Source: a virus (taxonomy: Duplodnaviria; Heunggongvirae; Uroviricota; Caudoviricetes). From it: a stretch of 11,292 bases of DNA. Of this stretch, positions 8,234-10,971 are shown in pieces; the stretch's first letter is position 1, and every line of letters begins with the position of its first letter. The notes beneath the pieces are model-generated. The model was not told the DNA's origin. It did not search any database and worked only from the letters and a program-made list of their open reading frames with translations. The position numbers and the translations under genes were made by a program. Location: the IMG/VR virus record IMGVR_UViG_2548876860_000007, one strand, 5' to 3'.

Positions 8234-8605
8234 ATGCGTATAGAGTTTGTTTTGCTTTACCCGCCGACGGTGAACACCTACTGGCGACGTCGTGGCAGCA
8301 CATATTTTGTATCAAAAGCCGGTGAGCGTTATCGCCGTGATGTGGCGCTTATTGTTCGCCAGCAGCGGCTGAAATTAAGCCTGTCCGGAAGGCTGGCGAT
8401 AAAGATTATTGCCGAGCCACCGGATAAGCGCCGCCGTGACCTGGACAATATTCTGAAAGCACCGCTGGATGCACTGACGCATGCGGGGCTTCTCATAGAC
8501 GACGAGCAGTTTGATGAAATCAATATTGTGCGCGGTCAGCTCGTTCCTGGTGGGCGACTGGGCGTGAAGATTTGCGAAATCAGAGGTGATGGTAATGGGG
8601 CGTGA
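8234..8605 (+). CDS. rusA: RusA Holliday-junction resolvase (123 aa)
   Basis: N-terminus LLYPPTVNTYWRRRG and catalytic-region motif DKRRRDLDNILKAPLDALTHAGLLIDDEQ match the RusA family as recalled. AGAGG SD 8223-8227. Confidence 0.9.
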   Translation: MRIEFVLLYPPTVNTYWRRRGSTYFVSKAGERYRRDVALIVRQQRLKLSLSGRLAIKIIAEPPDKRRRDLDNILKAPLDALTHAGLLIDDEQFDEINIVRGQLVPGGRLGVKICEIRGDGNGA

Positions 8606-8945
8606 TATGTATGAGGTTTTAGATCGCTGGGGGGCATGGGCTGCAGCAGAAAATAGCGGTGTCGATTGGCAACCGATAGCAGCGGGCTTCAAGGGGCTTT
8701 TGCCACATGGCAAAAAGTCACGTCTCCAGTGTGATGATGATGAAGGCATCATGATAGACGGTTGTGTGGCTCGGTTGCGAAAGTATAAACCAGAGGAATA
8801 TGAGCTGCTCATAGCTCACTTTGTTATTGGTGTTTCTCTACGCTCAATCGCGAAGAAACGCAGGTGCTCAGATGGAACTATAAGAAAGGAGCTGCAAACT
8901 GCATTAGGCTTTATTGATGGATGTATATGCTTGATTCTATCATAA
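8595..8945 (+). CDS. Late-gene antiterminator Q, QuuD/phage-82-type (Phage_antitermQ family)
   Basis: MGRDMYEVLDRWGAWAAAENSGVDWQPIAAGFKGL...CDDDEGIMIDGCVARL... parallels the QuuD N-terminus as recalled. GAGGTG SD 8583-8588 favours ATG 8595; alternative starts at GTG 8586, ATG 8589 or ATG 8607. Overlaps the rusA stop. Confidence 0.8.
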   Translation: MGRDMYEVLDRWGAWAAAENSGVDWQPIAAGFKGLLPHGKKSRLQCDDDEGIMIDGCVARLRKYKPEEYELLIAHFVIGVSLRSIAKKRRCSDGTIRKELQTALGFIDGCICLILS

Positions 8946-8958
8946 GTTATGACTGTTA

Positions 8959-9345
8959 CTACTCGTTTGCTTGAGCTTTCGATTCGGCGTCAGATAAAGC
9001 ATCAATACGAATATTTATGTTTTTTAATAGCTTATTGTCTAGAACGATAAGACATTGGTTGTAGTGCGCAATTTGGTCTGGTGTTAGGTTAGGGTTGGCC
9101 AGGCAGTTCGTGATGAATTTTCTGGCCGTTTTTATTTCCCTTTTCATTCTTACATCATTAAGCGTAGGCAAACCTATGTAAGCGATAAGAAGAATTACCA
9201 CATGAGATAAGCCGACAGCAGCTCCAGGCGCCAATGATTTGAAGAAGGCTAATTGAGGAAGCCAGTCAAAAAGGAAATTCAATCCCGCAGTGATAAGGGT
9301 GGTAAACCATGCCTGCATTGCCAGGTAGGATTTAGTGTTCGCCAT
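8959..9345 (-). CDS. Predicted membrane protein (128 aa): two N-terminal TM helices plus charged C-terminal tail; third gene of the reverse operon
   Basis: ATG 9345..9343 directly abuts the upstream TGA (9348..9346). AGGAAGG SD. Hydrophobic stretches YLAMQAWFTTLITAGLNFLF and AAVGLSHVVILLIAYIGL. Stop lies 13 bp from the convergent Q stop. No family recognised. Confidence 0.7.
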   Translation of the reverse strand: MANTKSYLAMQAWFTTLITAGLNFLFDWLPQLAFFKSLAPGAAVGLSHVVILLIAYIGLPTLNDVRMKREIKTARKFITNCLANPNLTPDQIAHYNQCLIVLDNKLLKNINIRIDALSDAESKAQANE

Positions 9346-9591
9346 TCACCTTCCTGCACTTGCTTCGTTGCGAGTTTTGAGTTCGCGTAGCAGTAGCGCC
9401 AACTCTTCTGCGTCATTTTCGTTTCTAACGCTGACTTTCCTTTTAGCGGTTCTGCCTTCAGGATCGGTGTAGGTTAGTTCAATATACGCATTCGGCTTTA
9501 CCCAAACCAAGAACCTAAGCACAGCATATCTGACCGTCGCTGCGACAGCCATGAATACAGTGATGTAAAGCATAATGCTTAGGATTGACAT
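9346..9591 (-). CDS. Predicted small membrane protein (81 aa): one N-terminal TM helix plus charged C-terminal region; second gene of the reverse operon
   Basis: ATG 9591..9589 lies 3 nt after the upstream TAA (9597..9595). SILSIMLYITVFMAVAATVRYAVLRFLVWV hydrophobic segment. No family recognised. Confidence 0.7.
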   Translation of the reverse strand: MSILSIMLYITVFMAVAATVRYAVLRFLVWVKPNAYIELTYTDPEGRTAKRKVSVRNENDAEELALLLRELKTRNEASAGR

Positions 9592-9594
9592 GAT

Positions 9595-10473
9595 TTAAAG
9601 TAGTTTCCTATCTGCCGCCGCTCTGTGGCGTATAACCTTAGTAATACTATAGCGTGGTTTAGACAGCGCGCCATTTGTTTCTTTTGTTGTTTCTGTCAGT
9701 TCTACAACAAAAAGATCACCCTTACAGAATGCTGCTTGGTTGTGTTCAACCCGTTCAAGAAAAGCCTCATCTTTCATAGATGCGCTAACTTCTTCGCCAT
9801 TTGGCAGGATGATATCCCAGCTTTTTCCTTGCTTGAATCGAACATTAGCAAAATGTACATTAGCTTGGCGTGTCGTTACGTGCGTTTTCTCGACAAAGGT
9901 GGATTTTGCAGTTTTAAAACTTACTGCTTCAGCTTGCGTCACCCTGACTACCTTATGCTTCTGCTGTGAAACTGAGAACGTGGATGGTTTTTCAGTCTGC
10001 AGGGGTTTATAGATTAATTTATCCAGTTCTTTTCGGATGATTGGACTGGTTATTAATTTTTGAATGTCGTTACTGCATTTAACCTTCTCACCATCCACTT
10101 CGATTTCTGCTGTATCTTTTTGTTCATCGACGACAATGGAGCTGATTTTACGCCCTTTGAGCCATTCGATTATCCCGAGTACGCCACCTGCGGCAACTCC
10201 ACCACCTGCAACGAGGCCAAGGGCGTTAATAGTTTTTATGCTCCCCATCACAGCAACAAGCAAAGTAAATGAACCTTCTTTTGTTGCCTTGATGTTGACT
10301 TTCGGCTCTGCTGTTTCGCCATTAATTATTTTTTCGGCGTGTTCAATCAGGGCACTAAGAGAGGTTAAGGCTTCGCCTAATGTTTTCGCGTCGATCTGAT
10401 TATCTGCGTATGCCTCTCCACCGTAGGCAATTTCGATTTCTGTTATTGGCATGTTTTCGAGTTGCTGCGTCAT
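9595..10473 (-). CDS. Predicted membrane-anchored protein (292 aa from ATG 10473; 303 aa from GTG 10506) with glycine-zipper TM helix and ~190-aa C-terminal domain of unknown function; first gene of the reverse operon
   Basis: Track ORF 9595..10506. ATG 10473 preferred because AAGGA lies 8 nt upstream. Hydrophobic glycine-rich helix INALGLVAGGGVAAGGVLGII flanked by charged regions. No family recognised. Confidence 0.7.
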   Translation of the reverse strand: MTQQLENMPITEIEIAYGGEAYADNQIDAKTLGEALTSLSALIEHAEKIINGETAEPKVNIKATKEGSFTLLVAVMGSIKTINALGLVAGGGVAAGGVLGIIEWLKGRKISSIVVDEQKDTAEIEVDGEKVKCSNDIQKLITSPIIRKELDKLIYKPLQTEKPSTFSVSQQKHKVVRVTQAEAVSFKTAKSTFVEKTHVTTRQANVHFANVRFKQGKSWDIILPNGEEVSASMKDEAFLERVEHNQAAFCKGDLFVVELTETTKETNGALSKPRYSITKVIRHRAAADRKLL

Positions 10474-10518
10474 CAAAAGCATCCTTTGCGCAAGAGAAAT
10501 AGCCACAGGATACAGATA

Positions 10519-10548
10519 ATTATGAAAAAATCACTAACGCGTACGCAA
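10519..10548 (-). promoter_or_regulatory. Candidate sigma70 promoter of the reverse operon (TTGCGT -18- CATAAT on minus strand)
   Basis: Minus-strand -35 TTGCGT (10548..10543) and -10 CATAAT (10524..10519), about 45 nt upstream of ATG 10473. Confidence 0.35.
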
Positions 10549-10593
10549 AAACTATCTTAATCTGTTAAGAGTGGTCGCTTCGCCACACAGCTT

Positions 10594-10618
10594 AAACCCG
10601 CATCAAGCGGGTTTTTTT
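10594..10618 (+). terminator. Intrinsic terminator on the plus strand in the operon-to-tRNA spacer (possible displaced tR'-like element)
   Basis: Stem AAACCCGC atca AGCGGGTTT followed by a T7 run (10612-10618) on the plus strand. On the minus strand it lacks a U tract. Confidence 0.45.
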
Positions 10619-10700
10619 GTGCCACTTATCTCGGATAGACATGGTGAATGCGCTGGTGGAGGAGATAAGGGTGATTTTTAACCAGGTGATTTTTGAATGC

Positions 10701-10729
10701 TTGCAACATTGATTTCGTAACGTTATTAT
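10701..10729 (+). promoter_or_regulatory. Near-consensus sigma70 promoter directly upstream of the tRNA genes (TTGCAA -17- TATTAT)
   Basis: -35 TTGCAA 10701-10706, 17-bp spacer, -10 TATTAT 10724-10729. The tRNA 5' end at 10739 is about 10 nt downstream. Confidence 0.5.
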
Positions 10730-10738
10730 CCTGCGCCC

Positions 10739-10814
10739 GGCCCTTTAGCTCAGTGGTGAGAGCGAGCGACTCATAATCGCCAGGTCGCTGGTTCAAATCC
10801 AGCAAGGGCCACCA
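10739..10814 (+). tRNA. tRNA with CAT anticodon (Ile2 lysidine-type or Met), ileZ/ileX-like
   Basis: 76-nt cloverleaf folded by hand: acceptor GGCCCTT/AAGGGCC, D-arm GCTC...GAGC, anticodon loop CTCATAA, T-arm GCTGG TTCAAAT CCAGC, encoded CCA end. Confidence 0.9.
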
Positions 10815-10894
10815 ACCGCCACTAGCTCATCAGGAAAGAACGTCACCCTGTGCGAGATTCGGAGTCCCCGGTGGCGGTCCATTATCGGTATTCT

Positions 10895-10971
10895 GCGTTG
10901 TTAGCTCAGCCGGACAGAGCAATTGCCTTCTAAGCAATCGGTCACTGGTTCGAATCCAGTACAACGCACCA
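10895..10971 (+). tRNA. tRNA-Arg (anticodon TCT), argN/argO-like phage tRNA
   Basis: 77-nt cloverleaf: acceptor GCGTTGT/ACAACGC, anticodon stem ATTGC/GCAAT with loop CTTCTAA, T-arm ACTGG TTCGAAT CCAGT, encoded CCA. Confidence 0.9.

Follow-up and report, generated by a model that had tools for sequence, protein, structure and literature searches.

In phage lambda, RexA and RexB combine a cytoplasmic protein of ~280 amino acids (aa) with a small membrane protein; the pair is expressed in the lysogen, and its activation leads to loss of the membrane potential. EACC1 (PF19953) is reported to be a soluble, autoinhibited monomer that makes membrane pores once its N-terminal part has been cut off by a protease (Evans et al., 2025, bioRxiv 10.1101/2025.11.14.688446). 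It is a stand-alone protein of ~110 aa, and its partner is a caspase-like protease that activates it by cleavage (Kaur et al., 2020, PMC7159879; bioRxiv 10.1101/2025.11.14.688446). The PDC systems are 145 candidates chosen for their embedding in BREX, DISARM or type I restriction-modification loci, and PDC-S42 was defined among them as a single gene (Payne et al., bioRxiv 10.1101/2024.01.29.577857). The locus compared here with these systems lies in IMG/VR record IMGVR_UViG_2548876860_000007, the whole 11,292 nucleotides (nt) of which were analysed and are called the window below. It comprises a minus-strand gene at 9595..10473 for a protein of 292 aa, hereafter the large protein, and two small genes for membrane proteins directly downstream. 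On our best reading a lambdoid prophage gained the three genes by horizontal transfer as an accessory ('moron') operon, and the large protein is cytoplasmic, at most peripherally or conditionally membrane-active. As to function, we lean, tentatively, towards a module that is expressed in the lysogen and acts at the membrane, by exclusion or abortive infection.

A PDC-S42 family protein and its two small partners

An earlier note on this DNA, made from the letters alone, had presented the open reading frame (ORF) at 9595-10473 as the largest protein of an operon, and the ORF proved to be real, the biggest of three on the minus strand. Its likely start at ATG 10473 was supported by a ribosome-binding site, AAGGA at 10482-10486, 8 nt upstream, and coincides with the start of the PHROG profile and of the 879-bp coding sequence (CDS) WP_000193722.1 in RefSeq. 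An upstream GTG at 10506, giving a 303-aa form, was rejected as a start, being without a ribosome-binding site. The PADLOC model for PDC-S42 (PDLC05015) matched nearly the full length of the protein (E=3.3e-53, 179 bits, profile positions 4-294 of 302, residues 22-299 of the 303-aa form). The NCBIfam equivalog model NF053583, 'LAPAL motif-containing putative phage structural protein', matched over positions 2-291 of 292 with 225.3 bits against a cutoff of 60, and PHROG 3243 (unknown function) matched with E=2.7e-94. RefSeq gives the NF053583 name to the identical protein. The literal LAPAL motif reads LGEAL in the large protein (residues 32-36) and was seen only in distant members, e.g., P0132, P0140, and P0164. 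Pfam gave no match above cutoff. When the Pfam matches of 142 family members were compared, 58 members matched DUF7946 (PF25678), a domain without known function, at E<=10. Its gathering threshold (27 bits) was passed by P0060 from a three-gene locus (27.8 bits, residues 9-160) and by P0124 (30 bits, residues 13-79), and from these ranges DUF7946 corresponds to the N-terminal two thirds of the protein, including the hydrophobic segment treated below. The large protein itself had no DUF7946 match at E<=1.

A profile search covering 1.84 billion cluster representatives gave 2926 relatives at E<=1e-3, in ~2900 clusters at 50% identity. Among the best 150 relatives listed, nearly all were 280-320 aa long, and a search with the N-terminal 160 residues returned only the same length class and shorter proteins from short contigs. 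Since no other architecture came up with the N-terminal part, the family has a uniform architecture of ~290-300 aa. PADLOC called no defence system in the window besides the PDC-S42 match. Literature searches for this protein, PDC-S42, the LAPAL motif, DUF7946, the RefSeq accession and the PHROG number found nothing, and the supplements of two defence-discovery preprints had no entry for the family. The large protein shares with PDC-S42 the profile match and the ~300-aa architecture. However, PDC-S42 is a single gene in or near defence loci, whereas the present gene belongs to a three-gene prophage operon between Q and tRNA genes, and it is followed by two conserved small membrane-protein genes that fall outside the PADLOC definition. 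The family is already catalogued, with no function assigned; its three-gene form appears undescribed.

The three genes are tightly packed, with gaps of 3 nt between the large gene and the gene for partner 1 (81 aa; 9346..9591, minus; PHROG 27630, E=8e-57) and 0 nt between the latter and the gene for partner 2 (128 aa; 8959..9345, minus; PHROG 26468, E=1.3e-87). Both partners are translationally coupled to the large gene, and neither matched Pfam above the curated cutoff. Partner 1 has an N-terminal transmembrane (TM) helix (Kyte-Doolittle value 2.18 in a 19-residue window, Hessa sum -0.62), followed by a short strand-turn-strand-helix part. Partner 2 has one or two hydrophobic helices (residues ~8-30 and ~41-60; Kyte-Doolittle 2.12 at residues 41-59), and its C-terminal half is helical and charged. 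By the positive-inside rule the C-terminal parts of all three proteins would be cytoplasmic. The suggestion of the earlier note that the two small TM proteins are partners of the large one was supported, the trio being kept as a unit in ~30 loci, even at large-protein identities down to ~30%. Partner 1 lay directly downstream of the large gene in all the three-gene loci examined, with its position, size and TM layout kept, and partner 2 was the conserved third gene. Partner 1 is unannotated in RefSeq NZ_CP135706.1, which has the same cassette at 99.8% identity.

The three-gene form was found in all lambdoid loci, in BcepMu-like prophages of Orbaceae and Gilliamella, and in a Mu-like phage with a GH108 endolysin. 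Further settings were a Vibrio Vinavirales prophage element, where it stands next to the integrase, a Photobacterium integrase island, and a locus beside an N6_Mtase/Eco57I enzyme. The island (Photobacterium leiognathi CP131601.1; L049, 8001-16870) splits a Mg-chelatase (ComM-like) gene. It also has ORFs of 781, 803, and 176 aa, none with a Pfam match, and these are possibly further defence cargo. Relatives occurring as single genes were ORF19 of Lactobacillus phage A2, between endolysin and integrase, and a gene that closes the early region, immediately ahead of Mor, in a Mu-like prophage of Methylobacter. Another came from Collimonas, with an Mrr nuclease nearby, and another shared its contig with an IS1595 transposase. 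The genome-collection search for related loci comprised only 3 loci.

The window itself covers the early-right part of a lambdoid prophage of E. coli, with the gene order repressor and cro-like gene, replication genes, Hok toxin, DUF968, RusA, Q, the minus-strand trio and tRNAs. The GC content of the three minus-strand ORFs with their upstream spacer was 0.41-0.45 (8751-10750) against 0.52-0.55 in the preceding prophage genes, which is consistent with recent acquisition from a lower-GC source. The distribution was patchy, with the whole cassette in 37 of 5426 complete E. coli genomes, and at the DNA level the cassette was not found in isolated-phage records. A near-identical stretch (99.8-100% over the 1.8-kb query) is annotated in RefSeq genomes, where the tRNAs are followed by holin, endolysin and head genes.

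Predicted fold and the hydrophobic segment

The AlphaFold2 (AF2) model of the large protein, built from a 24-sequence alignment, had a mean pLDDT of 82 and a pTM of 0.74, and placed all domains in one confident assembly. The chain is predicted to consist of an N-terminal alpha/beta module with a Gly/Ala-rich hydrophobic helix, a beta-hairpin and a C-terminal OB-like barrel. The N-terminal alpha/beta part (residues 10-76; 10246..10446, minus) comprises a strand, a long helix with IDAxxLGxxL, two strands and an invariant KEGSF loop (strands 10-18, 58-63 and 70-76, helix 29-51); I27, D28, A29, L32, G33, E66, G67, S68, and F69 are invariant, and the DUF7946 match of relatives begins here. The Gly/Ala-rich hydrophobic segment INALGLVAGGGVAAGGVLGII follows at residues 82-102 (10168..10230, minus). 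Directly after it stands the motif WLKGRK (residues 104-109; 10147..10164, minus), in whose columns W was kept in 64, L in 110, G in 110, R in 115, and K in 104 of the 175 family members used for all family-wide counts of the segment. A beta-hairpin and helices occupy residues 112-158 (10000..10140, minus; strands 112-116, 121-126 and 129-134, helices 135-141 and 144-158) with C133, L140, R147, and P157 invariant. The OB-like barrel of five strands and one helix covers residues 195-285 (9619..9891, minus), and a basic RHRAA tail comes after it.

In the model residues 10-158 follow the order strand, helix, two strands, hydrophobic helix region, two to three strands, helix, and residues 195-285 the order three strands, helix, two strands, which is the OB order. 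Structure matches were to ferredoxin-like alpha/beta domains (ribosomal protein S6, aIF2-alpha C-terminal domain) and also to OB folds (SSB, PriB, RPA, and tRNA-synthetase N-domains), the latter probably belonging to residues 195-285. Matches in BFVD were uncharacterised phage proteins and OB-fold factors, with A0A8S5T657 as the best (E=4e-11). No solved homologue was found for the predicted fold, nor was a match to a known soluble enzyme family. The earlier note had divided the protein into an acidic N-terminal segment of ~65 aa, one long hydrophobic helix, and a Lys/Thr-rich C-terminal domain of ~190 aa. The composition held on both sides, with 12 D/E against 5 K/R in residues 1-70, and 23 K and 15 T in the 187 residues from 106 to 292 (K+R 33 against D+E 25), but the N-terminal segment is 81 residues long. 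The hydrophobic segment is present as well; the continuous helix is not, because the model breaks it into helix 79-85, coil 86-97 (pLDDT below 50 at 91-95) and helix 98-105.

The hydrophobicity of the segment is borderline. Its Kyte-Doolittle value of 1.97 (19-residue window) is above the usual 1.6 and there is an uncharged run of 22 residues, whereas a simple Hessa-scale sum of +1.84 kcal/mol is unfavourable for insertion. Across the family the aligned region had a median Kyte-Doolittle value of 1.65, and only 24 members reached 1.9. A favourable Hessa sum was seen in one member, and the longest uncharged run was below 19 residues in 60. Family composition at the segment was 22% G, 16% A, 15% S+T, and 12% L, with ~9% charged residues (D/E/K/R), and several relatives carry K, R or E within it. 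Orthologues in three-gene loci often had no segment of at least 1.6 (L029, L031, the Vibrio element L046 and the Photobacterium island L049), while their partners were always TM-grade.

The glycine-zipper spacing proposed by the earlier note was only partly borne out. The segment contains 8 Gly, and the strict pattern GxxxGxxxG occurs once (G92-G96-G100), but 17% of shuffled versions of the segment would be expected to contain it, so that alone it is no more than composition gives. The relaxed pattern [GAS]xxxGxxx[GAS] was found in 91 members where ~48 were expected, the members being related and thus not independent, and therefore some small-residue periodicity is conserved in the family. G86 is nearly invariant (169/175), and position 96 is G in 100/175. 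Family hydrophobicity is low, orthologues fall below TM grade and charges occur inside the segment, yet it is rich in small residues and has few charges. We concluded that what is conserved here is no constitutive membrane anchor but a helix-forming, semi-hydrophobic element, one face of which consists of small residues. A hidden membrane-active helix seems to describe it better than a permanent anchor. This evidence against a constitutive TM anchor appears to be undescribed, as does the EACC1-like layout described in the next section.

Membrane-acting exclusion as a possible function, and its alternatives

Transcription of the operon runs against Q and the late genes, which makes its expression in the lysogen probable. 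For an exclusion or abortive-infection module speak the match to PDC-S42, a candidate defence family, the accessory-gene positions in unrelated temperate phages and islands, the low GC content, the patchy distribution and the conserved coupled trio. So do the segment, which is no robust TM helix yet consistently uncharged and rich in small residues, and the combination of an EACC1-like layout with an OB-like C-terminal domain. In the resting state the small-residue-rich hydrophobic segment would be packed against, or tethered to, the soluble fold. The OB-like domain may recognise a component of the infecting phage, nucleic acid or protein, and recognition would free the hydrophobic segment and the adjoining strands. 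The freed elements could then join the 81-aa and 128-aa membrane proteins, or act alone in the single-gene relatives, to make a membrane lesion that would depolarise or permeabilise the cell, so that the superinfecting phage would be excluded or the infection aborted. The trio would share with RexA/RexB the logic of a prophage-encoded cytoplasmic protein with one or more small membrane proteins. We consider its mechanism RexA/RexB-like or EACC1-like in logic and claim membership of neither.

EACC1 is a precedent for a latent membrane-active helix. The likeness lies in a hydrophobic helix with a small-residue patch, followed by W-L-basic and a beta-hairpin, amid alpha and beta elements. The sequence of Ktedonobacter EACC1 (KrEACC1) was taken from the supplement of bioRxiv 10.1101/2025.11.14.688446, and the EACC1 alignment held only 8 close sequences. 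The order of elements in the AF2 model of KrEACC1, E-H-E-E-H-E-E-H (E, strand; H, helix), is that of residues 10-158 of the large protein, and its second-best BFVD match (E=8.8e-3) was A0A8S5T657, the best match of the large-protein model. Two differences are evident: the large protein has 140 extra C-terminal residues with the OB-like domain, and EACC1 is paired with a protease, whereas no gene for one was evident among the window ORFs. The resemblance is one of layout, possibly of mechanism, and membership in EACC1 is not established. The role of sensor or pore-forming effector, which the earlier note had suggested for the large protein, is with this layout a reasonable inference with some support. 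A more detailed version we hold to be quite unlikely: an EACC1-like latent pore module would be fused to an OB-fold sensor that replaces the protease, ligand binding would free the Gly-rich helix, and the 81-aa partner, alike in layout, would co-assemble with it by strand pairing into a mixed ring. As a separate observation, partner 1 resembles residues 50-114 of KrEACC1, the toxic C-terminal fragment, in a hydrophobic helix, a W, basic residues, an 'LTY..PEG' strand-turn-strand and an amphipathic helix; the profile comparison gave E=0.17, and controls scored equally.

Several results weigh against a membrane-acting exclusion module of this kind. EACC1 was the best Pfam match of the large protein, but below cutoff (15.6 bits against 23.6, E=0.016, residues 81-140 to profile 42-102), and although it was the second most frequent Pfam match in the family, it occurred in only 5 of the 142 members. 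In hhalign comparisons of the family with KrEACC1, alone or as the 8-sequence alignment, the match was colinear over the whole of EACC1 but not significant (E=0.25-0.42); WLQRRQ of KrEACC1 was aligned with WLKGRK, likewise not significantly. When the proteins were split into pre-helix, helix and post-helix parts, the expected pairings gave P=0.08-0.27, and wrong pairings or registers did equally well or better, e.g., the post-helix part of partner 1 against the pre-helix part of the family (P=0.003). Because wrong pairings scored as well or better, two homology claims were dropped, namely that the large protein is a sequence homologue of EACC1, and that the 81-aa partner is an EACC1 homologue or a paralogue of the central part of the large protein. 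No protease was evident among the ORFs of the operon or the window, most window ORFs being unscanned against Pfam. The packing of the segment on the sheet is presumed. A consensus scan upstream of the operon reported no promoter; a possible weak one, TTGCGT-18 nt-CATAAT (10519..10548, minus), was read by eye and is under the scan threshold. In some Mu-like prophages the gene points in the direction of the early operon, which would fit a role in the phage's own lytic cycle too. Furthermore, no member of the family is known to have been tested, and PDC-S42 is listed by its authors as an untested candidate (bioRxiv 10.1101/2024.01.29.577857).

In the alternative closest to the earlier note, the large protein would span the inner membrane once and permanently, its N-terminal domain lying outside and its C-terminal domain inside. 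An oligomerising glycine-zipper anchor would hold it in a standing complex with both partners, and this complex could, for example, keep the DNA of superinfecting phages from entering at the inner membrane, as Sie- or Imm-type exclusion proteins do. The Kyte-Doolittle value and the uncharged run agree with this picture, as do the enriched small-residue periodicity, the KGRK right behind the segment together with an acidic N-terminal part, which fit the positive-inside rule, and two membrane-protein partners with charged parts on the same predicted side. We nevertheless find it unlikely, since the model builds no helix through 86-97 and joins the whole chain in one assembly, the large protein shares its unfavourable Hessa sum with 174 of 175 relatives, orthologues from three-gene loci can do without any TM-grade segment, and some relatives have charged residues inside theirs. 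There is also no signal peptide, and a folded domain of 80 residues would need to cross the membrane. The earlier claim of a permanent bitopic protein was therefore not upheld, and the segment appears in the model as partly included in a soluble fold. A role in the phage's own cycle, in which the operon would control, e.g., lysis timing or the holin, with the 128-aa protein being holin- or antiholin-like and the large protein its regulator, we rate as decidedly improbable. The module does adjoin the lysis cassette in Mu-like and BcepMu-like prophages, in lambdoid phages and in Lactobacillus phage A2, the 128-aa partner, with its one or two TM helices and charged C-terminal tail, is built like many holins, and in Mu-like phages the orientation is that of the neighbouring phage genes. 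However, the vicinity of lysis genes is a classic site of accessory genes, such as lambda bor. Here the operon lies on the strand opposite to Q and the late genes, and the module is also found outside phages, in the integrase island, beside the methyltransferase/restriction-type enzyme and near Mrr. It occurs in less than 1% of E. coli genomes, closely related prophages manage without it, and related prophages have their own complete set of holin, endolysin and spanin.

Counter-defence or host takeover would have the protein made early in infection, with a nucleic acid or a defence protein of the host as the target of its OB-like domain and with the membrane partners incidental. The OB-like fold and the position before Mor at the end of the early region in the Methylobacter prophage agree with this, but the orientation in the window is against both early and late transcription, the coupling to two membrane proteins is conserved, and the genes from which PADLOC defined the family were embedded in host defence loci; we regard this reading as very unlikely. 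A virion structural protein is suggested by nothing but the curated name of NF053583. In every phage examined the gene was outside the head and tail modules, and in the window it is on the opposite strand; it occurs in non-phage islands as well, and PHROGs, Pfam, the PDB, and BFVD gave no structural-protein match, so that a virion role has hardly any credibility.

Should the operon work as an exclusion or abortive-infection module, a very large family (~2900 clusters at 50% identity), which databases label 'hypothetical', 'structural' or 'untested candidate', would gain its first function and anatomy. The single-gene catalogue entry would then miss two small partner genes, one of them unannotated in RefSeq. 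If the relation to EACC1 is real, latent pore-formers of that kind could be triggered without a protease, and the EACC1 principle would extend from protease-coupled systems of Actinobacteria to protease-free modules of enterobacterial prophages. For prophage biology, the operon would be a further type of cargo for the accessory-gene position between Q and the lysis genes, which in Shiga-toxin phages is occupied by stx.

Neighbouring features and the boundary of the cassette

The trio is preceded by a complete Q antiterminator gene at 8586-8945 (Pfam Phage_antitermQ, 3.8e-45). The stops of Q and of the 128-aa gene converge, 13 nt apart (8945-8959). Beyond the trio two tRNA genes, tRNA-Met(CAT) and tRNA-Arg(TCT), lie on the plus strand at 10739-10971. 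In the otherwise near-identical prophage of strain TUM1880 (L001, 10840-11149) the tRNAs behind the cassette are four others (Ile, Lys, Thr, and Gly), and because the tRNAs differ between this prophage and the window, the right boundary of the shared cassette was placed near 10700. On this far side of the cassette, at 10571-10681, there is a 36-codon ORF, which is called 'antiterminator' by RefSeq and has no Pfam match; a strong hairpin with a T-run at 10594-10614 (plus strand) overlaps it. This may be the remnant of a different Q gene, or a late terminator, marking a mosaic joint. In the early region of the prophage an ORF for a Hok/Gef type I toxin was found at 6512-6724 on the plus strand (Pfam, 3e-23).

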